Positions 2,033 to 22,061 of a stretch of 64,000 bases of DNA are shown in pieces (within the stretch, counting starts at the first letter, position 1; every line of letters begins with the position of its first letter). The DNA comes from an uncultured Acidobacteriaceae bacterium (GTDB lineage Bacteria > Acidobacteriota > Terriglobia > Terriglobales > Acidobacteriaceae). The stretch lies in assembly GCA_963766975.1 (NCBI GenBank), contig CAVYCF010000012.1, forward strand, positions 32,859 to 96,858. The letters run 5' to 3'. Both the position numbers and the translations under genes were made by a program. The notes beneath the pieces were generated by a model, which made no database searches, was not told the origin of the DNA, and saw only the letters and a list, made by a program, of their open reading frames with translations.

Positions 2033-2134
2033 CGAGACGGTGGCACAACTTCTTGCGCACGGCATCCTAAGGAGAGGTAGAATCACGGCAAGTCAAGAAC
2101 CAAGGTATCCGCTGCATCAAACATCGCGGAGAAG

Positions 2135-2317
2135 ATGCCAATGACCAAACGAGAGATCGAGAACTTCAATCGGTTCATAGACGCGCTTGCTGAGACAATC
2201 GGCATATCCCGGAAGCAGCTTGAACGAATCATGTTTCAAGGGCAGTCAGAGCCGCACAAACCAAAATCGAGAAAAAATGGACATCCTCGAACACGATCAC
2301 TGCAAGCGGTGAAATGA
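2135..2317 (+). CDS. Small hypothetical protein (60 aa) overlapping the ATPase start
   Basis: Its TGA overlaps the ATPase ATG (ATGA at 2314-2317). No family recognised. Confidence 0.35.
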   Translation: MPMTKREIENFNRFIDALAETIGISRKQLERIMFQGQSEPHKPKSRKNGHPRTRSLQAVK

Positions 2318-3627
2318 AGTACTACGTCTATATTGATAATTTCCGCGGCTTCAGCGACACATGTGTCGAAATACTCGACGTGAATTTTCTAGTCGGTGAA
2401 AACAGCACTGGCAAGACTTCCTTCCTGGGGCTTCTGAAGCTTCTGTCCGGACCGAATCTGTTTTTTGGTCAACGATTCGACAATGAGCACATTGGGTTCG
2501 GTGGCTTCTCGGATATCGTGAGCGCGCACTCAAGCGACCGAAGTTATTTTCGCATTGGCTTCGCATGGGAAGAAGCCCCCGAGAAGAAGGAAAAGCCTCG
2601 TGTCACAGGCTGTCTCCTGACCTATACCGAAGAACGGGGACTGCCCTTCCTTTCGCAATGTACGTTTAGTCGGAACGGGAGCGTCATATCATTGCGACTT
2701 GGCAAGACGTGCATTACTCAATCGATAAATACAATGCAGCAACCGCAGACGAAATGATCTCCACTCTTCGCAAGGTGTGGGTGCGTGAGCATTCCGGTAA
2801 GGAAAAAAAATTTACAAAACTTGCGGTGCCGCCGTCGATGAAACGTGGGATGCCTGTATTGGTGGCATTGTCCTTCATCATGGATCGGAGCAAACAGCAG
2901 GTAAAGGGAAACAAGGTGGAATTGTTCCCTCCGGACATAGATTTTTTGCCCGATCTAATTTGGCTAGCCCCGATCCGGGCAAAAACAAAACGCATTATGA
3001 TCGCTGACACAGGAGACATTCTCTCCCGAAGGGGCACATACACCCTATTTGATTCGGAGAATACTGCGCACACCATCTCAGAAATCTGCAATCAAGCTGC
3101 GTCATGCGTTGGAGAAAATTGGAAAAGCAAGCGGACTTTTTCAAGAAGTCAGAATCAAGCCATATGGCCGGACTGCCAACGCGCCATTTGAGTTGGACAT
3201 TGTTCTCGATGGTAAAGCCCTCAACGTTAGCAATGGGGGGTATGGAGTTTCTCAGGCATTGCCGGTCATTGTCGAAGTACTCTTGAGAGCCTCTGGTACA
3301 TGGCTTGCAATACAGCAACCTGAGGTTCACCTTCATCCGAGAGCACAGGCTGCCCTAGGTGATCTCTTCTTCGAGATGGCAACTACAGATGAGAAGATTT
3401 TCTTGGTGGAAACGCACAGCGATTTCACCATTGATCGATTCAGGTTGAACTATAAGGGCAACAAATCAGCCAAAGCTTCCGGCCAGATCCTCTTCTTTGA
3501 GCGTAAAGACAAGCACAATGTCATTACCCCACTTGAAATCGGAAAGAACGGGGAACTGCCAACAGATCAACCAGAGAGCTATAGACAGTTCTTCATCAAA
3601 GAGCAATTGAGACTGTTAGACGTCTGA
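2314..3627 (+). CDS. ABC-type/AAA_15-21 ATPase (COG4938/DUF3696-like), frameshifted at ~2709 and ~2995-3000
   Basis: N-terminal YIDNFRGF and Walker A GENSTGKT. C-terminal GYGVSQALP, Walker B IQQPEVHLHP and H-loop VETHSD. The three ORF pieces join into ~438 aa. The region is visibly AT-richer than its flanks. Confidence 0.85.
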
Positions 3628-3630
3628 ACC

Positions 3631-4110
3631 ATGTGCGCAATCGTTGATTCATGCTGCCTCGCAATGGTTTTCGACCGCACGAACAAGGAGCACCCGCGCT
3701 TTGAACCTCTGTTCAGTTGGATCAGTGGCAGTGGTTGCCTAATTTACGGTGGCACGGGCTACAGAGCCGAACTTGAAAAACTTCCGCGCTATTTGGCACT
3801 CATTGTCGAGTTGAGAAAATCTCGCCATGCAGTCTCCGTCTCAGATTCAGAAGTAGACAAAATTGCAGCGGAATTGAAAAAGGAATATCCCGATCCACGG
3901 TTCAACGACCCGCACATCGTCGCTTTGGCACTAGCCTCAGGATGCCAAGTGGTATGTACAAACGACGCGACTGCTATCAATTACCTGAAACGTCTTGTCA
4001 TTTTTAACGGACGCGGGCTCAAGAGGCCAAGCATCTATCGGGGACACAAGAGCCACCACAAGCTATGCTGCGACAAAAAGATTGTCGGAGCGTGTAGAGA
4101 TCGCGGTTAG
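3631..4110 (+). CDS. PIN-fold nuclease-like protein
   Basis: N-terminal AIVDSCC strand-Asp, a central Glu (RAELE) and NDPHIVALALASGCQVVCTND, the usual PIN acidic-tetrad pattern. It starts 3 nt after the ATPase stop. Confidence 0.75.
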   Translation: MCAIVDSCCLAMVFDRTNKEHPRFEPLFSWISGSGCLIYGGTGYRAELEKLPRYLALIVELRKSRHAVSVSDSEVDKIAAELKKEYPDPRFNDPHIVALALASGCQVVCTNDATAINYLKRLVIFNGRGLKRPSIYRGHKSHHKLCCDKKIVGACRDRG

Positions 4111-4129
4111 ATGCATGCGGCCCTGGGTC

Positions 4130-4452
4130 CTACGCCGCGCCTACTACCCTCACCCGCCCCACTCCTTTCGCCCGCGCCCGCGGACGAATCTCGATCACCA
4201 CGTCGTGCTCCAGCGCCGTGACAAAGTGCATCAGCCGCTCCACGGAGAAGCCCTCCAGCTTGTAGCCCTTCAGCGCCGACACCTTCGGCTGATTCCGCCC
4301 AGCGCCCGCGCCGCCTCGACCTGCGTCAGCCCGCGGCCCTCCAGAATGCGGTTGATGGCCACGCACAGCCGCAGCTTCGTATCCAGCTCCTCCGCATTCT
4401 TCAGCCCCAGGTCGCGAAACACATTCCCGCTGCTTTCCGTCACTTTCGCCAT
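4130..4452 (-). CDS. XRE-family HTH protein (HigA/HTH_37-like antitoxin), frameshift at ~4293
   Basis: MAKVTESSGNVFRDLG...GLTQVEAARALG joins NQPKVSALKGYKLEGFSVERLMHFVTALEHDVVIEIRP. Confidence 0.8.
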
Positions 4453-4498
4453 ATCCCAATTCTAGGATAATGCTTCGGGAAAGACGCCAGATCGGAAG

Positions 4499-4518: not shown

Positions 4519-4739
4519 GTAAAAGACCTGGCCGAAGGCTTGGCTTTTGACTGTGCGGAGCATCAGCTCTGCACGAGAGCGCTGAAGGCGCGAAATATAC
4601 CAGCCTAGGTCGGAGCCGATTCCAACGAGCTTTGCTCGTTGGTACGGCGCAGGCCAAGGAAAGAATCGCCGCGCAAGCGCAAACACGCTGCGAAGGCCGA
4701 GCGGAGAGGCGCAGCGACAGAATTGCTTTCACGCGTGCA

Positions 4740-4811
4740 GCGCGTCGAGAACCGTACGAAGTAGCGCGTCGAGAACCGTACGAAGTACCGTGTCGAGAGC
4801 GGCACGAAGCA
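4740..4811 (+). repeat. 24-bp tandem repeat: two exact copies and one degenerate copy
   Basis: gcgcgtcgagaaccgtacgaagta at 4740-4763 and 4764-4787; ccgtgtcgagagcggcacgaagca at 4788-4811. Confidence 0.85.
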
Positions 4812-5115
4812 CCTGTCAAGCCCCGAAACCACCTATCTCGCTCACCCGCCTGACGATAGAGTTGGCATGATAGTTATGCTCCGCCAGCTACAATAGAAGT
4901 AGAGAGAAAAGCAGGAATAGAAGCAAATAGAAGTAGAGAGAAAAGCAGGAATAGAAGCAGTGAGAAAAGCAAGGTCCGCCGCGCGCGGGCCCTGTCTGTT
5001 TAGGGTATCCAATTGAAAACAAGGGCGTTCCTAAATAACTTCTGTGAAATCAATCACGAGAAATAAACCCTTCCAAATCAATCATCTGGAAAATCCTATA
5101 GGGGGAGGGGGGTAC
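4812..5115 (+). repeat. Dispersed modular non-coding element, copy 1
   Basis: By hand, 4812-4899 aligns without gaps to the reverse complement of 55283-55370 (62/88), and 5050-5115 aligns to the reverse complement of 55112-55177 (47/66). Confidence 0.75.
4892..4959 (+). repeat. 34-bp exact tandem duplication, purine-rich
   Basis: aatagaagtagagagaaaagcaggaatagaagca occurs twice back to back. Confidence 0.9.
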
Positions 5116-5132
5116 ACCAGGAAGCCCCAAGA

Positions 5133-5336
5133 TCATCCCGCTGCTCGCTCGGCGTACTCGCGGCAGGAGCGGCGGTGCTTCTCGAGGTCGAGCGCGGCTT
5201 TGACCTTGCGCTCGGCCTTCTGGCGCGCGCGGTTGCGCAGGCCGGCCTCGGTCAGTCCCAGCAGCAGATCCGGCGCGTCCTCCTGCTCGGACGACACGAT
5301 CGCCTCCTCCAGCTGCATACAGGTCTTGCACGTCAT
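5133..5336 (-). CDS. Small hypothetical protein with N-terminal CxxC and C-terminal HxxxC
   Basis: MTCKTCMQLEEAIV...LEKHRRSCREY, 67 aa, with host-like GC-rich codons. Confidence 0.5.
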   Translation of the reverse strand: MTCKTCMQLEEAIVSSEQEDAPDLLLGLTEAGLRNRARQKAERKVKAALDLEKHRRSCREYAERAAG

Positions 5337-5570
5337 GGGACTTGCTCCTACTTGGAGACTACACTGCTTCCCAGTCTGGCCTCGCGACCGTGGTCCGTCC
5401 GCCGCGGGCTCGCGCAGGCCCACCGCTGTGGCGCCGCGGATTGACGGGCCTTCCGGCACACGCGCCCGGATTCGCGTAGGCTGGAAGCAGCAACCCTCCC
5501 TCGCCTACAGGCTCCATTGCTCCAGACGAGCGTCCTTCCAGGTACGCAACCGCTCACAAGGAGTCTCCCC

Positions 5571-5756
5571 ATGAGCTTCCCCAGAAATACTGACGTTTCC
5601 AAACATCTCGCGCGCAAGCCGAGACAATCCCCAACCGAGCCGGCCAAGTCTGCGCCCGCCGCCGATTCGGCCAAGGCCGAACTGAAGTCGCTCACCCAGG
5701 ACCTCTCGGCCGCCGTCGACGGCGCCCAGGACCCTCCCGCGCTGGGCCGCGACTAA
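5571..5756 (+). CDS. Small hypothetical protein (61 aa)
   Basis: AGGAG lies 7 nt before ATG 5571; codon usage is host-like. Confidence 0.4.
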   Translation: MSFPRNTDVSKHLARKPRQSPTEPAKSAPAADSAKAELKSLTQDLSAAVDGAQDPPALGRD

Positions 5757-5818
5757 CCTGATCCCCCTCACTTGAAACAACCGGTGCGCCTGACGGCGCT
5801 CCAGTCTATGGAGCAAAT

Positions 5819-6031
5819 ATGCGTACAAACCGGATCCATGTAGCCATTGCACAGGGAAACAATCGGTATGAGATATGCCACCTGACGTCCAAGGGTGTCC
5901 ACATCATCCACAAGCGCGGCGAGCGCATGGAGGACTCCATCAATCGGGTGCTGGGAATGCTGCGCCCGCTCGCGCCTGTGGCTGCGATCCAACGGAGCTT
6001 AGCCTCCGCGGCGGTAGCCAGTCCCGCCTAA
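5819..6031 (+). CDS. Small hypothetical protein (70 aa)
   Basis: GGAG lies upstream of the ATG, and the ORF ends 22 nt before the barrel gene. Confidence 0.4.
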   Translation: MRTNRIHVAIAQGNNRYEICHLTSKGVHIIHKRGERMEDSINRVLGMLRPLAPVAAIQRSLASAAVASPA

Positions 6032-6053
6032 GACCGACCACGCCATAGAATGG

Positions 6054-6932
6054 GTGTGGATGAACAGATTGCAATGGATGGTCCGCGCGGGAGCGGGCGT
6101 AGTGTTGGTGTGCGCGCTGAGCGCAAAGGCACAAACCCAGACAACAGACTCATGGCTTACGCGCTGGCAGGCACGCGCTACGGAGACGCAGGCCGCACAG
6201 CCGCACTGGGCGACGCCTGTGGCCACCTCGACGCCGAGGATTGACCAGGCGCAGCGTGCGGAGTTCTCGCGCCAGACGAACGCCGCCGGCTATCGCACCT
6301 GGGACCTGGGCAACAGCAAAGGCCTCGAGCTGATCCCAGCGCGGCGCACGGAGCTGATCCTGGGCACGCCGCCGTTCTTTGAGCACGCGCAGCCCGGCGT
6401 GAAGAATGGCTTTGGCGATATGTGGTTGCAGGCCAAATACCGCATGGCCGCAGGCAATGAGCAGCACGGCAACTATGTGGTGACGGCGGTGCTGTACGCG
6501 ACGATCCCGACGGGGAAAGATGCGAACGGCATCTGTTGCGCGGTGGTGACTCCTGCGCTGGCCGCGGGTAAAGGCTGGGGGCGCTGGGCGGTGATCTCCA
6601 CGCTGAGCGGAACGCTGCCGGTGACCAATGTGCACGGCCTCGGGCATACCATCGCGTGGAACAATGTGGCGGAATATCGCGTGGGGGCGAAGGGCTTTGC
6701 GAAGCTGCTGACGCCGGAGATCGAGACCAACTCGAACTTCTACCGCGGCGGCGCCAACGACGGAAAGACGGCAACCTTCCTGACGCCGGGCCTGATCTTT
6801 GGCCGCATCCCGTTGACTCACGCCGCGACCGGCCGGCGCGCGCTCACGCTGGCCGCCGGCGAGCAGATCGCCGTAACGCACTATCACGCTTACAACCACG
6901 GGCTGATCGTCTCAGTGCGGATGCCGTTTTAG
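6054..6932 (+). CDS. Exported putative outer-membrane beta-barrel (MetA-pathway-like transporter), paralog 1
   Basis: Signal peptide (AKA-Q), GFGD..LQAKY motif, alternating amphipathic strands and C-terminal Phe (VRMPF). Confidence 0.65.
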   Translation: MWMNRLQWMVRAGAGVVLVCALSAKAQTQTTDSWLTRWQARATETQAAQPHWATPVATSTPRIDQAQRAEFSRQTNAAGYRTWDLGNSKGLELIPARRTELILGTPPFFEHAQPGVKNGFGDMWLQAKYRMAAGNEQHGNYVVTAVLYATIPTGKDANGICCAVVTPALAAGKGWGRWAVISTLSGTLPVTNVHGLGHTIAWNNVAEYRVGAKGFAKLLTPEIETNSNFYRGGANDGKTATFLTPGLIFGRIPLTHAATGRRALTLAAGEQIAVTHYHAYNHGLIVSVRMPF

Positions 6933-6949
6933 GTGCGCGTCAGACACCT

Positions 6950-7005
6950 AAAATCAGACACGCGCACGCAAAATCAGACGCGCGCACGCAAAATCAGACG
7001 CGCGC
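6950..7005. repeat. 20-bp tandem repeat (~2.8 copies) that includes the stop codon of the TOBE gene
   Basis: aaaatcagac(a/g)cgcgcacgc at 6950 and 6970, with a partial copy at 6990. Confidence 0.85.
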
Positions 7006-7437
7006 GATCATCACTTCGGTGGACTTCATCAGCGCGGCAGCGGTCTGGCCTTTGCGCAGGTGCATCTCACGCACAGCGTCGGCGGTGATGATGGATGTGA
7101 CTCGCTGGGGACGCGGCGCGCCGGCGATCTCAAGGACAACCTTCGCCAACAGGCCGCTGATCTTCACCTCTACGATGGTGCCGATGAGCTGATTGCGCCC
7201 ACTAACGTTGCGGAAGCGCTCTCGCGAGGCTGCGCTGGGCGCGGCAGGCTCGGCGGGAAGATAGCGGCGCAACGCGGCGCGAGGGATACGGTGATGCCCC
7301 CCCGGCGTCTTGACGGTGCGGAGCTTGCCGGAGAGGATCCACTGCTTGATGGCAGGATAGCTGACGCCGATGGCGGCTGCTGCTTCGCGGGGCGTGAGGA
7401 GGGCAGGGGAGGACCGTATGGAAGTTTTTTTTGTCAT
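6994..7437 (-). CDS. Excisionase-type HTH (HTH_17) + TOBE domain regulator (ModE-like, molybdate/tungstate sensing)
   Basis: LLTPREAAAAIGVSYPAIKQWILSGKLRTVKTPGGHHRI followed by SGRNQLIGTIVEV...SIIT..AV.EM.L..G....ALMKS (TOBE/Mop motifs). Confidence 0.85.
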   Translation of the reverse strand: MTKKTSIRSSPALLTPREAAAAIGVSYPAIKQWILSGKLRTVKTPGGHHRIPRAALRRYLPAEPAAPSAASRERFRNVSGRNQLIGTIVEVKISGLLAKVVLEIAGAPRPQRVTSIITADAVREMHLRKGQTAAALMKSTEVMIARV

Positions 7438-7485
7438 ATTTTGATCCGTATAAAAACGTCATCACCATCCGCCTAAAATTATTTC

Positions 7486-8364
7486 ATGAGGCGACGTTCT
7501 TTTGCTTTCTCGATATTGGTGAGTGGGGCTGTGTTGTTTGGGGCTTCGGCGGTGCAGGCGCAGACAGGAGATTCCTGGATTGCGCAGTATCAGGCGCGGG
7601 TCACGGCGACGCAGAGCGCGCAGCCGCACTGGGTAACGCCGCTGGTGACGGTGACACCGCGGCTGGAGCAGGAGTTTCGCACCGATTTTGTGCGGCAGAC
7701 CAACGCGAAGCTGTATGAGACGTGGAATTACGACAACAGCAAGGGATTGGAGATCATTCCGGCGCGGCGGATTGAGCTGCTGTTCAACCTGCCGCCCTTC
7801 TTCGCTCACCAGCAGCCGGGAGTGAAAGACGGCTTCGGCGATGTCTCCTTCAACAGTAAGTTCCGCATCTTTGCGCGCAATGAAGAACATGGTAACGCGA
7901 TTCTGACCGCCTTCTTCGCCGCAACTGTTCCGACAGGAAAGAACAGCAACGGAAGTTGCTGTGCAGTAGTGACTCCAACGATTGCGGGCGGCAAGGGTTG
8001 GGGGAGGCTCGACGTGACGTCGACGATGGGCGGTTCGCTGCCAGTGACCAATGGCAAGGGGTTGGGCCACACTATCGTATGGAACAACGTCGCCCAGTAC
8101 CGGGCGGCGAAGACGGGCGCGGCGCGGTTCTTCTGGCCGGAGATGGAGTTCAACTCCAGCTTCTTCTCCGGGGGCGCGAACGATGGCAAGAAGATGACGT
8201 TTGCGACGCCGGGGCTGATTGTCGGACGGATTCCACTGGCTCACAATGCTGACGGCACGCCCGGGCGGCTGGGGCTCACCTTTGGCGCGGGCGAGCAGAT
8301 CGCGCTGACGCACTTCCATACTTACAACCACGCGCTCGTGCTGACTGCGCGAATCCCATTCTAG
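7486..8364 (+). CDS. Exported putative outer-membrane beta-barrel, paralog 2
   Basis: Same length (292 aa) and shared motifs with 6054-6932 (AQPHW.TP, NSKGLE.IPARR, CCAVVTP); C-terminal IPF. Confidence 0.65.
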   Translation: MRRRSFAFSILVSGAVLFGASAVQAQTGDSWIAQYQARVTATQSAQPHWVTPLVTVTPRLEQEFRTDFVRQTNAKLYETWNYDNSKGLEIIPARRIELLFNLPPFFAHQQPGVKDGFGDVSFNSKFRIFARNEEHGNAILTAFFAATVPTGKNSNGSCCAVVTPTIAGGKGWGRLDVTSTMGGSLPVTNGKGLGHTIVWNNVAQYRAAKTGAARFFWPEMEFNSSFFSGGANDGKKMTFATPGLIVGRIPLAHNADGTPGRLGLTFGAGEQIALTHFHTYNHALVLTARIPF

Positions 8365-8520
8365 GAATGGCCCGGTGGACGAGTCCGCGCAGTCCTTCCC
8401 TGGCTGAGAACAGATGGCCGCTGCCAGGGCGATTGCGAGCGCTCTACAACGATGGGGTCATCTATGGCCCGCGGGTGGCATTCGGTGAGACGCGATTCAG
8501 GATTATGCTGAATTTGTCCG

Positions 8521-8778
8521 ATGAAGAACCGTAGCGGCGTGTACCTGCCGACTGATGTCCGATTCGCGAGTGAGGGACCCTTGGATTTTCTGGTGATGTT
8601 CGACTCTCCGTGGCTGAACTTCTGTATGGGAGGGTTCTTTCTGGTTGCAGGTGCGAAGCGGGGAAAGCGGCGTCCGCCGGGAAGCATCAGCTCGGGCGCG
8701 GGCAGTGTGGTGTTTGCCATTGTGGGTCTGTTGCTGGTCGCAAATGGCCTGTACCTGCTGTATAAGTTTGGCTCCTGA
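8521..8778 (+). CDS. Small two-helix membrane protein (start may be 8596)
   Basis: Two hydrophobic segments separated by a basic loop. Confidence 0.35.
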   Translation: MKNRSGVYLPTDVRFASEGPLDFLVMFDSPWLNFCMGGFFLVAGAKRGKRRPPGSISSGAGSVVFAIVGLLLVANGLYLLYKFGS

Positions 8779-8941
8779 TCCAGGCGGCTTTCAAACAATC
8801 TGAATTTTCGCCCATTTTCTGACGCGCGCGCGCCATTTTCCGTCGATAACTGGCATCTGAATCTGCATGCACTCGTGCATATGGAAACGTGATGCCGTTG
8901 TTGCGGAGAGTGGTTACCGCGCGAACAGGAAAGGGACGACG

Positions 8942-9832
8942 ATGAGGAAAAATCAAACGATGATTCGGCTGGTTGGTTCAGCCATGTTGGCGATGGCGCT
9001 GCTGGCGGGCTGCAAGAGCAAGCAGGACGAGGCGATCGACAACGCGAAGAAGCAGGCGGCGGCGACGGGGCAGCCGCAGCAGGTTGTGTCCGTAGATAAG
9101 GACGGCAACACGACGACGACGACGATTCAGCCTCCTGCGCCGGGGCAGACGGCAGAGACGGTCTCTTCGACGACCACTCCGGCTGGGGCAGTGCCGGCAG
9201 GGACTCCGCCACCGGCGCCGGGTGTGTATTACAACCCAGTTGGGACTGCGCAGCCGGGGCAACCGGTGGCGCAAGGGCAATCCGGAGCGCCGGCGCCCCC
9301 AGCGCCGATCGTGCCTGCGAATGTGAATGTGCCTGCCGGGACGACGCTGGCGATTCGCATCAACCAGCGCATCAGCGTGAAGACGACGGCGGCGGGTTCG
9401 CCGTTCGATGGAGAGCTGGCCGAGTCCTATACGGACGAGAGTGGGCGCGTGATTCTTCCCAAAGGCACACAGGTGGAAGGGATCGTGGATGCCTCGCACA
9501 GGCGCGGGCACTTCAAGGGCGCATCGTATCTGGAGCTGCGGCTAACGGCGCTGGACCTGAACGGGCAGCGGTATCCGCTGGCGACGCATGATATGACGGA
9601 GCGGAAGAAGGGCAAAGGCAAGCGGTCGGCCGCGATGATCGGCGGCGGAACGGGACTTGGCATGCTGATCGGCGGCGTGGCCAGCGGCGGGACGGGTTTG
9701 CTGATCGGCGGGCTGGCCGGCGCGGGCGCAGGCACGGCCGGTGCTGGACTAACCGGCAACCGCGACCTCGACATTCCGTCGGAGTCGATTGTGCACTTCA
9801 AGCTGGCCGAGGATCTAACGCTAGCAGGATAG
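8942..9832 (+). CDS. Lipoprotein with Pro/Ala linker and a VirB10/TrbI-like glycine-zipper C-terminal domain
   Basis: Lipobox LLAGC; VPAGTTLAIR..., ILPKGTQVEG and Gly-rich GGGTGLGMLIGG motifs. Confidence 0.7.
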   Translation: MRKNQTMIRLVGSAMLAMALLAGCKSKQDEAIDNAKKQAAATGQPQQVVSVDKDGNTTTTTIQPPAPGQTAETVSSTTTPAGAVPAGTPPPAPGVYYNPVGTAQPGQPVAQGQSGAPAPPAPIVPANVNVPAGTTLAIRINQRISVKTTAAGSPFDGELAESYTDESGRVILPKGTQVEGIVDASHRRGHFKGASYLELRLTALDLNGQRYPLATHDMTERKKGKGKRSAAMIGGGTGLGMLIGGVASGGTGLLIGGLAGAGAGTAGAGLTGNRDLDIPSESIVHFKLAEDLTLAG

Positions 9833-9864
9833 TTGTGAGGTTTGTGGTCGGTTTGTTAGTTGTG

Positions 9865-9894
9865 AAAGGCCCATCGGAGACGGTGGGCCTTTTT
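9865..9894. terminator. Bidirectional intrinsic terminator
   Basis: aaaggcccatc-ggaga-cggtgggcctttt between convergent genes. Confidence 0.75.
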
Positions 9895-9897
9895 GCG

Positions 9898-10863
9898 TCA
9901 GCCGACGAGATGCTTTTCGACCAGGGCGACGGCGCGCGACTGGATTTCGGTGTCGGAGCCGAAGCCGGTCAGCCAGTGGATCTCGGGGTCGCGGCGAAAC
10001 CATGTGAGCTGGCGCTTGGCGTAGTTGCGATGGCCCTGCGCGCAGAGCGTGACGGCGTCTTCGCGCGTGAGTGCTCCGCGCAACACCTCAATGGCCTGCG
10101 CGTAGCCAAGCGAGGCGAGCGGTCGGCAATCGTATCCGTACTGCTCGACGAGGCGGGCGGTCTCTTCTTCGAGGCCGCGATCGAACATCGTGGCGGCGCG
10201 GCGATTAATTCGATCGTAAAGCGCGGCGCGCGGCGGATCGAGGCCGAGGCGCAGGATGCGACAGCCGGAGAGTGCTTCACGTTCGTTCTCGCGCCAGTGC
10301 TGGGTGATGGGGCGGCGCGCTGTGAGCGAGACCTCAATAGCGCGGATGAGTTTGGGCACGTCGTTGGCGTGGATAGCGCGGGCGGCGGCGGGGTCGATGC
10401 GGGCGAGGATGCGATGCAGTTGCGTGGGTGACTTGTCCGCGCGGGCGCGGAGTTTCTTGCGCAGTGATTCATCGCGCGGCGGCGCGGGTGAGAGGCCGTC
10501 GAGCAGCGCGCGGAGGTAGAGGCCGGTGCCGCCGGCGACGATGGGCAGGCGATTGCGTTGGGTGATGCCGGCGATGGCCTCGCGCGCGAGGCGGGCGTAG
10601 TGGCCGGCGGTGCAGGGCTGGTCCGGCGTGAGGATGTCGATGAGGTGATGCGAAACGAGGGCGCGTTCTTCGGCGGTGGGTTTGGCGGAGCCGATGTCGA
10701 GGCCGCGATAGACGGCGACGGAGTCGCAGGAGACGACCTCGGCGGGGAAGCGCGCGGCGAGGGCGAGCGCAAGCGCGGTCTTGCCGCTGGCGGTGGGGCC
10801 GGCGAGGACTACCAGCGGAGATGCGGGGAGAGGAGATGCGCGCTCTGGCTTCATAGTCCGCAT
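9898..10863 (-). CDS. miaA: tRNA dimethylallyltransferase
   Basis: LAGPTASGKT, SCDSVAVYRGLDIGSAKP, GGTGLYLRAL and RNYAKRQLTWFR. Confidence 0.97.
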   Translation of the reverse strand: MRTMKPERASPLPASPLVVLAGPTASGKTALALALAARFPAEVVSCDSVAVYRGLDIGSAKPTAEERALVSHHLIDILTPDQPCTAGHYARLAREAIAGITQRNRLPIVAGGTGLYLRALLDGLSPAPPRDESLRKKLRARADKSPTQLHRILARIDPAAARAIHANDVPKLIRAIEVSLTARRPITQHWRENEREALSGCRILRLGLDPPRAALYDRINRRAATMFDRGLEEETARLVEQYGYDCRPLASLGYAQAIEVLRGALTREDAVTLCAQGHRNYAKRQLTWFRRDPEIHWLTGFGSDTEIQSRAVALVEKHLVG

Positions 10864-10902
10864 GGGCTTAGGAAAGTTTGTATCGCTGCGCAGCCCGCGC
10901 TG

Positions 10903-12936
10903 TCAGCCCGTGGATTTTTTGTTGCGGGGGCGGGTGAGGAAGCGGAGCGGGGTGCCGACGAAGCCGAAGGCCTCGCGCAGACGGTTGGCGAGGTAGCGCT
11001 CAAAGGCGAAGTGGAGGGGGACGTCGCGGTCGGTGAAGAGGACGAAGGTGGGCGGAGCGACGGCGGCCTGGGTGATGTAGTAGATCTTGATGCGGCGGTT
11101 GAGAGGGACGGGGGCGGACTGGAAGTCGGTGCGGGCGAGGAAGCGGTTCATCTGGCCGGTGGTGACGCGCTTGCGGCGCTCGCGGGCGACGAGAGAGATG
11201 GCGCGGTAGAGGGCGTCGAGGCCAGTGCCGGCGGCGGCGGATAGAAAGACGACGGGCGCGTAGTCGAGGAACTTGAGGCGGGTGCGGAGCTGGGACTCGA
11301 AGATCTTTTGCGAGGCTTTGGGGGTGTTGGACTTGGTGCCCTCCCACTCGTGCGCGTCCCGGCGGTCGTGCATGAGGGGGGTGACGTGATTGTGTGGCGC
11401 GATTTTAGAAGCAGGTCCCTCGACTGCGCCGCGCGCTGACGCTCGCGGCTTCGCTCGAGATGACAAGTTTGTGGTCAGCAGGTCCCACTTGTTGACGACG
11501 ATGATGACGGAGCGGCCGGACTCATGCGCGTAGCCGCCGATGGTGGCGTCGAGCGCGGTGACGCCGGCGGAGGCGTCGAGGACGAGGAGAGCGATGTCGG
11601 CGGATTCGAGGTGGCGGCGGGCCATGACGACGGAGAGCTTCTCGGCCATCAGGCGGGTCTTGCCTTTGCGGCGGATGCCGGCGGTGTCGATGAGTCGCAG
11701 GGCCTGGCCGTTGCGGATGACGAGCTCGTCGATTGCGTCGCGAGTGGTGCCGGCGATGGGCGAGACGATAGCGCGGTCGGAGCCGGTGAGGGCGTTAAGT
11801 AGCGTGGATTTGCCGACGTTGGGGCGGCCGATGATGGCGATGGGAGTTTCTGCGGGGATGTGTTCGGCGTGGCGGGGGTGGTGGGTTGCTGGCTCGTTGG
11901 AGGCGACTTCGCTGACGGCACCGGGGAGCAGTTCTGATCCTGCGGCGGGGCTGAAGTCGGGACCGGTCTCGTCCTCTTCGATCTCGTCGGCTTCAGTGAG
12001 CATGGCTTCCGGTGCGCTGACGGTCTCGGTGGGTTCGGGGAGGACGGCGAAGGCGGCGTCGAGGAGGTCGCCGATGCCGATGGCGTGCTCGGCGGAGATG
12101 GGGATGATGTTTTTGAAGCCGAGGCGGCGGAAGTCTTCGGCGTTGGAGGCGAGGGCGGCGGTGTCGATCTTGTTGACGGCGAGGAAGACGGGCTTGCCGG
12201 AGCGGAGGAGCAGGCGCGCAAGTTCGAGGTCGGGGGCGGCGAGCTCGGTGCGGCCGTCGACCACCATGATGATGGCGTCGGCTTCGGCGAGCGCGGTGCG
12301 GGCCTGACGGAAGATCTCGGCGGGGATGAGCTCGGGGTCGTCGGGGAGGACGCCGCCGGTGTCGACGAGGCGGGCGGTGCGGGCGAGCCATTCGAGATCG
12401 GCGTAGATGCGGTCGCGGGTGATGCCGGGCTCGTCGCCGACGATGGAGCGGCGGGAGCCGGTGAGGCGGTTGAAGAGGGTGGACTTGCCGACGTTGGGGC
12501 GGCCGACGATGGCGATCAGGGGAAGGCCGGTTTCGGATTCGAGGTGGGCGGCGGCTGTGCGGGCGACTCGGGCGTTGAGCGACATTTGCGCGGCGAGGGA
12601 TTCGGCGCGGGACCAGGCAGCGGCCTCGGCGGGGAGCTCGAGGTTGGGATCGTAGGGATCGTGCGCAGAGATGCGGGATTTGCCTCGCGGAGCGTTTGGC
12701 GCGATGGGCTTACTGCGTTCGCGCTCAGGGGATTGCGTGGGGATGTGGCGCTTGGCCTCGGCCTTGCGCCGGTCGGAGGCGATTTTTTTGCGGCCCTTGG
12801 GCGAGGCGTTGGAGACGCTGGCAACGAAGGCGCCGGTGGTGGGCTTGCGGCGCGGGGCGGAGCCGGATTTCTTGGGGCGCGTGGTGGCCTGGCGATGCTT
12901 CTTGCCGAGACGTTTCTTGCTGGGGCGCGGTGGCAT
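10903..12936 (-). CDS. der: Ribosome biogenesis GTPase Der/EngA, with a basic N-terminal extension and an insert in GD2
   Basis: Two GRPNVGKST G1 motifs, DTGG/DTAG, NKID/NKWD and a C-terminal KH-like domain (PPTFVLF). Confidence 0.97.
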   Translation of the reverse strand: MPPRPSKKRLGKKHRQATTRPKKSGSAPRRKPTTGAFVASVSNASPKGRKKIASDRRKAEAKRHIPTQSPERERSKPIAPNAPRGKSRISAHDPYDPNLELPAEAAAWSRAESLAAQMSLNARVARTAAAHLESETGLPLIAIVGRPNVGKSTLFNRLTGSRRSIVGDEPGITRDRIYADLEWLARTARLVDTGGVLPDDPELIPAEIFRQARTALAEADAIIMVVDGRTELAAPDLELARLLLRSGKPVFLAVNKIDTAALASNAEDFRRLGFKNIIPISAEHAIGIGDLLDAAFAVLPEPTETVSAPEAMLTEADEIEEDETGPDFSPAAGSELLPGAVSEVASNEPATHHPRHAEHIPAETPIAIIGRPNVGKSTLLNALTGSDRAIVSPIAGTTRDAIDELVIRNGQALRLIDTAGIRRKGKTRLMAEKLSVVMARRHLESADIALLVLDASAGVTALDATIGGYAHESGRSVIIVVNKWDLLTTNLSSRAKPRASARGAVEGPASKIAPHNHVTPLMHDRRDAHEWEGTKSNTPKASQKIFESQLRTRLKFLDYAPVVFLSAAAGTGLDALYRAISLVARERRKRVTTGQMNRFLARTDFQSAPVPLNRRIKIYYITQAAVAPPTFVLFTDRDVPLHFAFERYLANRLREAFGFVGTPLRFLTRPRNKKSTG
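11335..11381. repeat. REP-like hairpin (GGTGCCC-ended type) in frame within der
   Basis: cccactcgtgcgcg pairs with cgtgcatgagggg, preceded by ggtgccc. The ppc-internal hairpin carries the same end as gggcacc. Confidence 0.55.
11409..11466. repeat. REP-like element in frame within der
   Basis: Left 19 nt identical and right 17/18 nt identical to the intergenic copy at 57705-57759, with the same total length. Confidence 0.85.
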
Positions 12937-22015: not shown

Positions 22016-22061
22016 GCAAGGGACTAGTTGCTGGGGTTAGATACTAGGGGAAGGTCTGAGC

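Follow-up and report, generated by a model that had tools for sequence, protein, structure and literature searches.

A candidate anti-phage cassette of an ABC ATPase and a cysteine-rich PIN protein in an Acidobacteriaceae genome

What is the role of the compact, low-GC gene cassette that lies just downstream of a fumarase gene in an uncultured soil bacterium of the Acidobacteriaceae? We analyzed 64,000 nucleotides of contig CAVYCF010000012.1 (assembly GCA_963766975.1, positions 32,859 to 96,858 of the forward strand). We refer to this whole stretch as the window, and coordinates without a contig or locus name are positions within it. An earlier note, made from the sequence alone, had proposed that the cassette is an anti-phage system in which an ATPase controls a toxic nuclease, much as in Menshen but without a DUF262 protein. 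We think it likely that the cassette is a horizontally acquired anti-phage module of the abortive-infection type and that it belongs to a "DUF3696-tailed ABC ATPase + PIN" supersystem that includes HEC-03 and the NsnB-NsnC core of Menshen. The family is a divergent and so far unmodelled relative of these two systems, and it extends a known type of immunity rather than adding a new type.

The insert contains three open reading frames (ORFs), all on the plus strand:

2040..4115 (no strand): low-GC insert with the whole cassette inside it, between the stop codon of the fumarase gene (2032) and a convergent HTH_37 gene (4130-4459, minus strand)
2135..2317, plus strand: 60-amino-acid protein, the first gene of the cassette; its TGA overlaps the ATG of the ATPase gene at 2314 (ATGA)
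2314..3627, plus strand: NsnB-like ABC ATPase (AAA_15/AAA_21, "OLD-ABC") of 438 codons, assigned from Pfam and PADLOC matches; its start codon is part of the ATGA overlap with the small ORF
3631..4110, plus strand: stand-alone, Cys-rich PIN nuclease of 159 amino acids, the predicted RNase effector; it starts 3 nucleotides past the stop codon of the ATPase gene (3627)

The small ORF with its ATGA overlap, the ATPase gene and the Cys-rich PIN gene 3 nucleotides further on had all been described in the earlier note, and we found each of them at the positions that it gave.

The ATPase, its PIN partner and the small protein

In all 33 of the related loci that we collected, the homolog of the ATPase gene ends 3-13 nucleotides before the start of the PIN gene. 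These loci represent about six phyla and include 8 metagenome contigs, from look-ups of PIN homologs, and 25 genomes, from a scan of species representatives. The genomes are mostly from Acidobacteriota; the others are from an alphaproteobacterial metagenome-assembled genome (MAG), the betaproteobacteria Rhodoferax and Burkholderia sp. WSM2230, Ketobacteraceae, Latescibacterota, two Treponema (including TIM-1), and Saccharimonas. Because the pair recurs at this spacing in every locus, its arrangement is far beyond chance.

The PIN protein has 9 cysteines among its 159 residues and is similar to Pfam's PIN family (E = 7.8e-6, which is above the curated cutoff). The catalytic set D6-E47-D93-D112 is present, and a C-terminal extension of about 40 amino acids has a Cys/His-rich end. 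Across 138 representatives of the PIN family, D6 is conserved in 100%, E47 in 96%, D93 in 99%, and D112 in 88% (Glu takes its place in 11 more, or 8%). Cysteines and histidines outside the catalytic set are also kept: C2 (85%), H21 (87%), H95 (98%), C105 (82%), C109 (93%), and C155 (64%). To our knowledge, neither these conserved Cys/His residues nor the C-terminal extension are features of canonical VapC PINs. Our guess is that the Cys/His residues could form a structural metal site or a redox-sensitive feature.

The predicted structure of the PIN protein (AlphaFold2; predicted local distance difference test or pLDDT of 83.7, predicted template modeling score or pTM of 0.81) has the alternating order of strands and helices of a PIN domain. 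When we compared this model to the Protein Data Bank with Foldseek, the top matches were VapC-type toxins and archaeal PIN proteins: 5x3t_B (probability 0.99, template modeling scores of 0.61/0.69), 1w8i, 7vwo, 2fe1, and Nob1. The named proteins among these top matches are VapC, AF1683, PAE0151, and Nob1. Judging by its residues and its predicted fold, this is a divergent, Cys-rich, and catalytically competent family of PIN proteins. It belongs to the VapC-like PIN domain superfamily, whose hallmarks are a Rossmann-like alpha/beta/alpha fold and four acidic residues that are kept.

The family is also large. Scanning 1.84 billion cluster representatives with HMMER, we found 1389 cluster representatives of the PIN family (625 of them at E ≤ 1e-10), and nearly all are 150-180 amino acids long, with no second domain. 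A word-indexed search had first given just 6 relatives, which reflects the limit of the word index and not the rarity of the family. Existing models describe these proteins poorly: just 26-29 of the 138 representatives reach Pfam's PIN or PIN_3 at E ≤ 0.01, and PADLOC's models do not match the PIN protein from the window (E ≤ 1), three of its homologs (E ≤ 0.01), or any of the 138 representatives (E ≤ 0.01).

In the ATPase, Pfam's AAA_15 and AAA_21 match at both ends of the protein, and the match of its tail to DUF3696 is below the threshold (17.3 bits, versus a cutoff of 22). The Walker A motif is GENSTGKTS, an arginine is at the Q-loop position (APIR), the signature motif is GYGVSQ, and the H-loop is ETHSD. 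In the Walker B motif (AIQQPEVHLHP), the Mg-binding aspartate and the catalytic glutamate are both replaced by glutamine. The C terminus has a DUF3696-like helix, YRQFFIKEQLRLL. Most of these features are shared by 26 orthologs, which keep G[EQ]NS[TS]GK[TS]S, APIR, GYGVSQ, ETHSD, and a C-terminal [YF][RK]xFF helix (tail YRxFFxxE); IQQPE is found in 24 of the 26. The least conserved segment of the ATPase is a variable insert of about 100 residues (roughly 131-230).

The best PADLOC matches of the ATPase are all ABC ATPases of defense systems. For the intact orthologs, the top match is NsnB of Menshen, over the full length (117-135 bits, E = 1e-34 to 1e-39). The ATPase model of HEC-03 (PDLC04148) is also matched over the full length, with scores below those for NsnB (80-88 bits, E = 1e-23 to 1e-25). 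Further matches are to AriA (partial, 82-87 bits) and to PDC-M55A. A sequence search of solved structures yielded only distant OLD/GajA ATPase cores for the ATPase and nothing for the PIN protein.

The small protein is predicted to form two helices (residues 5-22 and 26-33) that are joined by a G-x-S turn and followed by a disordered tail that is rich in Lys, Arg, and Pro. Its AlphaFold2 model has a pLDDT of 75 overall and of 89-91 over the helices, and its conserved motif is ENFxRFxxAxAxxxGxSRKxLxRxxFQG. Homologs lie directly upstream of the ATPase gene in 10 loci of the Acidobacterial clade (E = 1e-8 to 1e-27), often with the same ATGA overlap, and a profile of the small protein matches 13 public proteins of 53-70 amino acids. 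For 7 of these 13, the contig is as long as a contig that bears an ATPase homolog or a cassette locus. This region has diverged so far in DNA that only the closest loci can be aligned, even though the E values for the protein reach 1e-27. These comparisons indicate that the 60-amino-acid ORF is a real and conserved third gene in the Acidobacterial subclade, which agrees with the earlier description of a two- or three-gene system. The small ORF is absent from about half of the loci, and the proteobacterial and Treponema loci have no small ORF upstream of the ATPase gene. In three other loci (L017 to L019), there are small ORFs that look unrelated and have a similar design, with a short hydrophobic helix and then a basic tail. 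The 60-amino-acid protein has no significant match in Pfam, NCBIfam, or PADLOC. It is most likely a lineage-specific autoregulator or adaptor that binds DNA or RNA.

Relation to known defense systems

HEC-03 (Hma-embedded candidate 03) is an ABC ATPase with a VapC-like PIN protein; it protects E. coli from phages, both genes are required, and it is toxic when induced (Payne, Hughes, Fineran and Jackson, 10.1101/2024.01.29.577857). The novelty of our cassette is reduced because HEC-03 is already named and validated. The earlier note had missed this precedent.

We judged the likeness to HEC-03 using two models from PADLOC-DB v2.0.0 (PDLC04147 for the PIN protein and PDLC04148 for the ATPase) and a HEC-03-like pair of genes (L048). 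(The names in this version of PADLOC-DB are reversed relative to the preprint: the database's "HEC-03B", with 458 positions, is the ATPase and its "HEC-03A", with 159 positions, is the PIN protein, while in the text of 10.1101/2024.01.29.577857 the ATPase is HEC-03A and the PIN protein is HEC-03B.) In the family, as in HEC-03, a two-gene operon encodes an ABC ATPase of about 440-460 amino acids and then a VapC-like PIN protein of about 150-160 amino acids whose active site is intact. As mentioned above, the family's ATPase aligns to the HEC-03 model over its full length, and one member of the family (L033, described below) is embedded in an operon that resembles Hma and type III restriction-modification (R-M) systems.

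The family nevertheless differs from HEC-03 in both proteins. The cassette is not an exact match to this named system: the PIN model of HEC-03 (PDLC04147) matches 0 of the 138 PIN family members. The family's PIN proteins are Cys-rich, with C2, C105, and C109 conserved, and the Acidobacterial clade adds the coupled 60-amino-acid gene. The family's ATPases have just 80-88 bits on PDLC04148, versus 228 bits for the ATPase of L048, and they score higher on NsnB. Also, the Walker B motif of the L048 ATPase has E-Q where the present family has Q-Q.

L048 (G026:C8, 4086-5903) is a second and different ATPase-PIN pair, of 448 and 152 amino acids, and it is found in an Acidobacteriaceae MAG that also carries a member of the present family (L013). 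So two branches of the supersystem are present in one genome. The 152-amino-acid partner matches the PIN model of HEC-03 weakly, and it adjoins a 390-amino-acid ORF that looks transposase-like by eye. The L048 ATPase has nearly equal scores on the HEC-03, NsnB, and PDC-M55A models; therefore, these three PADLOC models describe one clade of ATPases, and the present family is a more distant sister. When we compared the profile of the 138 PIN sequences to the L048 partner with hhalign, the probability was 0.1 (with a single sequence on one side of the comparison).

Menshen, which was described by Millman et al. 2022 and dissected by Li et al. 2025 (PMC12065111), consists of NsnA (a ParB-DUF262 sensor), NsnB (an ABC ATPase with a DUF3696 helix), and NsnC. 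In NsnC, an inactive, N-terminal PIN-like docking domain is fused to a separate C-terminal nuclease effector, and the PIN-like domain is predicted to be clamped between two DUF3696 helices of NsnB (PMC12065111). NsnB departs from the usual ATPase motifs: its Walker B has E-N, an Arg replaces the Gln of the Q-loop, and GxG replaces SGG (PMC12065111). Because the family's ATPase shows the same kinds of departures (an altered Walker B, Arg for Gln, and a GxG signature), we consider it to be kin to NsnB, which is also its top match in PADLOC; and it shares the C-terminal DUF3696-like helix. By analogy with these departures, the Q-Q Walker B suggests that the ATPase acts as a switch with nucleotide bound and is not a fast hydrolase. 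In both systems, a PIN-fold protein is encoded directly downstream of the ATPase.

However, the family lacks NsnA, its Walker B has Q-Q instead of the E-N of NsnB, and its PIN protein retains D-E-D-D and has no fused effector, whereas NsnC joins an inactive PIN-like domain to a BECR, Toprim, or PLD effector. We therefore rejected the identification of the cassette as a complete Menshen system, given the absence of NsnA and of a second nuclease domain and the presence of the active-site residues in the PIN protein. The description of the cassette as Menshen-like but without DUF262 stands: NsnB is the best match of the ATPase, the locus in the window has no NsnA or DUF262 gene, and a PIN protein with all of its catalytic residues follows. 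As to the make-up of Menshen itself, the earlier note had correctly listed DUF262, an ATPase with DUF3696, and a nuclease, but it took PIN to be a possible form of this nuclease, and in NsnC the PIN-like domain is an inactive docking domain and the nuclease is separate (PMC12065111).

Upstream of the ATPase gene in the window are the 60-amino-acid ORF and then the fumarase gene, with no DUF262 gene at the locus. The two DUF262 (GmrSD_N) genes of this genome, whose open frames span 593 and 407 amino acids, are on contig C7 (12650-13327 and 70408-70770) and not on C12. Across 27 loci, DUF262 is not among the recurrent Pfam families (considering the 25 most frequent families), and the upstream genes are unrelated to each other. 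The large upstream genes on the same strand include a type III methyltransferase (L033) and, by eye, a UvrC-like gene (L016) and a P450-like gene (L012).

PARIS (AriA-AriB) and Septu (PtuA-PtuB) share the logic that we propose below, as an oligomer of an ABC ATPase holds a nuclease effector and frees or activates it in response to a cue from the phage. The partial AriA matches of the family's ATPase cover the conserved ATPase core only. The effectors of PARIS and Septu are Toprim (DUF4435) or HNH and not PIN, and the clades and sizes of the ATPases differ; since the partner in our family is a PIN protein without any match to Toprim or DUF4435, we rejected both systems. We also rejected a canonical VapBC type II toxin-antitoxin system. 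The PIN protein has the VapC fold and its catalytic residues, but in 33 of 33 loci its partner is a 438-amino-acid ABC ATPase, there is no adjacent antitoxin of the VapB type, and the PIN protein has the C-terminal extension and the conserved Cys/His residues. The small ORF lies upstream of the ATPase gene instead of next to the PIN gene, and about half of the loci lack it.

Acquisition, spread and integrity of the cassette

The GC content is 0.46-0.52 within about 2050-4050, versus 0.63-0.71 on either flank (in the fumarase gene and the HTH_37 gene), so there is an AT-richer insert directly after the fumarase gene, as had been noted. DNA homology between the window and three of the related loci (L001, L007, and L008) is restricted to 2118/2141-4090/4104. 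The cassette is accessory: of 401 genomes sampled from the phylum, 7 (1.7%) have it, and it is in no sampled genome of the same genus other than the window's own. Its low GC content and its absence from the sampled congeners indicate that the insert is foreign and was acquired horizontally.

Some of the cassette's history may be visible in its flanks. In L007 and L008 the cassette is adjacent to a fumarase gene, as in the window. In L001 (ena:ERZ27241254 k141_388053), it lies instead between khpA and rimM of the rpsP-khpA-rimM-trmD operon, with an IS1595 transposase further downstream. Upstream of the small ORF of L001 is a remnant, about 108-150 nucleotides long, of the 3' end of a fumarase gene (6158-6312 of L001), which is 74% identical in DNA and 71% identical in protein to 1876-1981 of the window. 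Because this remnant is at a different site, it appears that in at least one transfer the cassette took neighboring DNA with it out of a site next to a fumarase gene, as in the window.

We found no target duplication, terminal inverted repeats, or direct repeats flanking the insert above chance, and no promoters or terminators around the cassette beyond the chance level. Scans for Rfam families, tandem repeats, and tRNAs in or beside the cassette did not identify an RNA component (no ToxI-like array, retron RNA, or tRNA integration site). We sought an empty site in six regions from the same genus. These share the fumarase gene alone with the window, and the downstream synteny is absent, so there was no clean pre-insertion site.

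One member of the family lies within a defense operon. In Treponema sp. TIM-1 (L033; NZ_JAJQRC010000004.1, 4894-11208), the ATPase-PIN pair interrupts a type III R-M system, with Mod on one side and Res on the other. The genes are tightly packed on one strand in this order: an SNF2 helicase (DrmD/HmaA-like), a 781-amino-acid LmuB/Mad3-like ABC ATPase, a type III methyltransferase (E = 5e-198), the ATPase-PIN pair, and a type III restriction enzyme (E = 9e-217). Judged by its gene content, L033 is an Hma-like operon with a nested cassette, which is the same "embedded" situation that revealed HEC-03.

In the deposited assembly, the ATPase gene of the window is not a single open reading frame but is spread over three, which cover 2314-2706, 2706 to about 2995, and about 3004 to 3627. 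The frame breaks and the two genes that flank the insert are:

474-2032: class I fumarate hydratase, which falls into three frames because of two insertions of one base each, near 1165 and near 1857
2700..2710, plus strand: frame break 1, a 1-nucleotide deletion relative to the intact homologs, at LRLGK|DVHY (about 2706), from the frame of 2314 to the frame of 2316
2990..3006, plus strand: frame breaks 2 and 3, two 1-nucleotide deletions (about 2994-3003) around KR.YD.LTQE that return to the frame of 2314 (from three-frame translation and tblastn against L001, L007, and L005)
4130-4459, minus strand: HTH_37 gene (XRE-type), convergent with the PIN gene and 20 nucleotides from its stop codon, with a native-like GC content (0.63-0.66)

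Once the three 1-nucleotide deletions are counted, the ATPase is exactly 438 amino acids long, as are its intact homologs. Using tblastn with intact 438-amino-acid homologs from metagenomes, the three segments are colinear and are 87%, 57%, and 78% identical. None of the segments has an in-frame stop in its correct frame. In all three, the proportion of nonsynonymous differences (pN, 0.08-0.25) is far below the proportion of synonymous differences (pS, 0.73-0.90), and the pattern is the same between two intact homologs.

The breaks also extend beyond the cassette. The fumarase gene has an open frame through the match of 511-552 amino acids in the eight relatives whose loci we took, and it has no internal stop in 12 of 12 genomes of the same genus that carry the gene. 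The HTH_37 gene is broken by one frameshift, with two ORFs that match positions 1-42 and 42-80 of HTH_37. Altogether there are 6 frame breaks within 3.2 kb (3 in the ATPase gene, 2 in the fumarase gene, and 1 in the HTH_37 gene). Across the genome (15 contigs, 3.42 Mb), a heuristic based on the phase of GC content at third codon positions (GC3) identified 223 candidate frame breaks, or 10.9 per 100 kb of confident coding sequence, versus 1.25 in control loci from other assemblies (258 kb), which is an excess of about 9-fold. This heuristic is crude, as it caught 1 of the 6 known breaks in the region and made at least one doubtful call (at 22037), so the rate is a relative measure against the controls only.

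We are fairly confident that the three breaks in the ATPase gene are indel errors in the assembly and that the gene is probably intact in the organism, because the fumarase and HTH_37 genes are also broken, because of the genome-wide excess, and because pN is so far below pS. Two observations count against this explanation: the indels are outside of homopolymers, and they are denser locally than elsewhere in the window. These would fit better if the copy in this genome were a dead remnant, with real frameshifts, an ATPase that is not made, and a locus that is decaying, and the presence of three breaks in one gene of a deposited assembly would fit as well. However, decay of the cassette would not account for the breaks in the neighboring genes (including the fumarase gene, which is intact in the eight relatives) or for the excess across the genome, and the correct frames are free of stops, with a pN/pS equal to the value between intact homologs. 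Also, a PIN protein that lacked its ATPase would probably be toxic, and yet the PIN ORF is intact. We consider a dead copy to be unlikely. The assembly as a whole appears to be rich in indel errors; therefore, broken genes in it should not be taken as pseudogenes without examining the reads.

Beyond the cassette, the HTH_37 gene has no visible toxin partner upstream, and it is not kept beside the cassette in other loci. In the intergenic region beyond it is a match to a small RNA motif from Rfam, Acido-Lenti-1, at 4578-4609 on the minus strand, which covers the full length of the model and is below the threshold (30.3 bits versus a gathering score of 37, E = 3e-4). There are also tandem repeats at 4739-4809 (24-nucleotide units, 3 copies) and at 4892-4971 (purine-rich units of 34, 24, and 12 nucleotides).

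Proposed function and its alternatives

We propose that the cassette is a defense module because of what we observed at these loci (the linkage of the two genes, their domain identities, the kinship of the ATPase to defense ATPases, the catalytic set of the PIN protein, the accessory and foreign character of the cassette, and the embedding of L033 in an R-M operon) and because HEC-03 provides a precedent. The ATPase would form dimers or tetramers that clamp the PIN protein via their C-terminal helices and hold it inactive. Because the catalytic glutamate is missing, the ATPase is probably no motor and would instead serve, with ATP bound, as a switch or sensor. A cue from the phage, which might be sensed by the variable insert at residues 131-230, would alter the nucleotide state or the oligomer state of the ATPase. 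This would free or activate the PIN protein, which would then cut host RNA, phage RNA, or both (tRNA, rRNA, or mRNA, as VapC toxins do), and the cutting of RNA would stop the infection. In the lineage that has it, the coupled 60-amino-acid protein, which is helix-turn-helix-like and has a basic tail, would be a third component, most likely a nucleic-acid-binding autoregulator or an adaptor.

Several points weigh against this proposal. The complex with its clamping and release, its trigger, and the RNA that is cut are proposed by analogy with the predicted NsnB4-NsnC2 complex, Septu, and PARIS (PMC12065111), and the small protein's role is likewise a proposal. The kinship of the effector to that of HEC-03 extends to fold and architecture only. 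We found no homolog of the PIN protein in the phage and plasmid collections. The earlier note had suggested a survey of the homologs' neighborhoods for linkage to defense genes. Considering three genes on each side of 27 loci, we found scattered matches to defense genes (type III R-M, DrmD/SNF2 helicase, reverse transcriptases, Cas1, HEC-01B, and PDC-S36) and the one member that is embedded in an R-M operon, but the neighbors are mostly unrelated housekeeping genes and not defense islands. The recurrent families among the neighbors are IS1595 transposases (4), phage-type integrases (2), and resolvase.

One alternative is that the cassette is selfish, a toxin-antitoxin or addiction module that plays no part in phage defense. 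The ATPase, or else the small protein, would restrain a VapC-like PIN protein, and the module would persist by post-segregational killing or by stabilizing DNA. The resemblance of the PIN protein to VapC toxins is consistent with this, as is the label "putative AbiEii toxin, type IV TA" (toxin-antitoxin) that the ATPase family has in the sources; the insertion sequence (IS) elements and integrases near a cassette in varied, mostly housekeeping contexts also fit, and the small, basic upstream protein could be antitoxin-like. Yet the partner of the PIN protein is a large ABC ATPase instead of a VapB-type antitoxin, many loci do without the small ORF, the nearest characterized relatives (HEC-03 and Menshen) defend against phages, and L033 sits within an R-M/Hma-like operon. 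We think that a purely selfish module is quite unlikely, and in any case toxin-antitoxin behavior and abortive-infection defense are not mutually exclusive. A further alternative is a housekeeping pair for RNA processing or quality control, in which the ATPase would regulate a PIN RNase that acts on the cell's own RNAs. PIN domains do serve in the maturation of rRNA and tRNA (Nob1 is among the fold matches), and several copies are in or beside translation-related operons, such as L001 between khpA and rimM. But a housekeeping role is very improbable for genes that occur in so few genomes of the phylum and in no sampled congener, that have a foreign GC content, that are inserted at a different site in every lineage, and whose ATPase is kin to defense ATPases only.

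A more specific reading can be put forward, although we are doubtful that all of its parts will hold jointly. The clade might be a third autonomous branch of the supersystem that retains the ancestral state, in which the clamped PIN protein is itself the effector. The ATPase, with its near-invariant Q-Q, might be a non-hydrolyzing, ATP-loaded receptor, with direct binding of a phage product by its variable insert of about 100 residues. And the Acidobacterial 60-amino-acid protein might be a previously unseen third subunit, either a nucleic-acid tether or a trigger-sensitive lid on the PIN protein.

This kind of system is already known and validated, so specialists may find it of limited surprise. 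Still, the annotation of defense systems in genomes from soil and peat probably misses a family with over 1,000 cluster representatives, because PADLOC v2 models miss the PIN half and the ATPase scores only moderately. The family also offers a natural experiment within the HEC-03/Menshen group. The ATPase scaffold is shared, but the PIN protein is active and stands alone, there is no DUF262 sensor, the Walker B lacks acidic residues, and one clade has an additional small protein. It could reveal whether such ATPases need ATP hydrolysis at all, and a comparison with Menshen could reveal how an active effector turned into an inactive docking domain.

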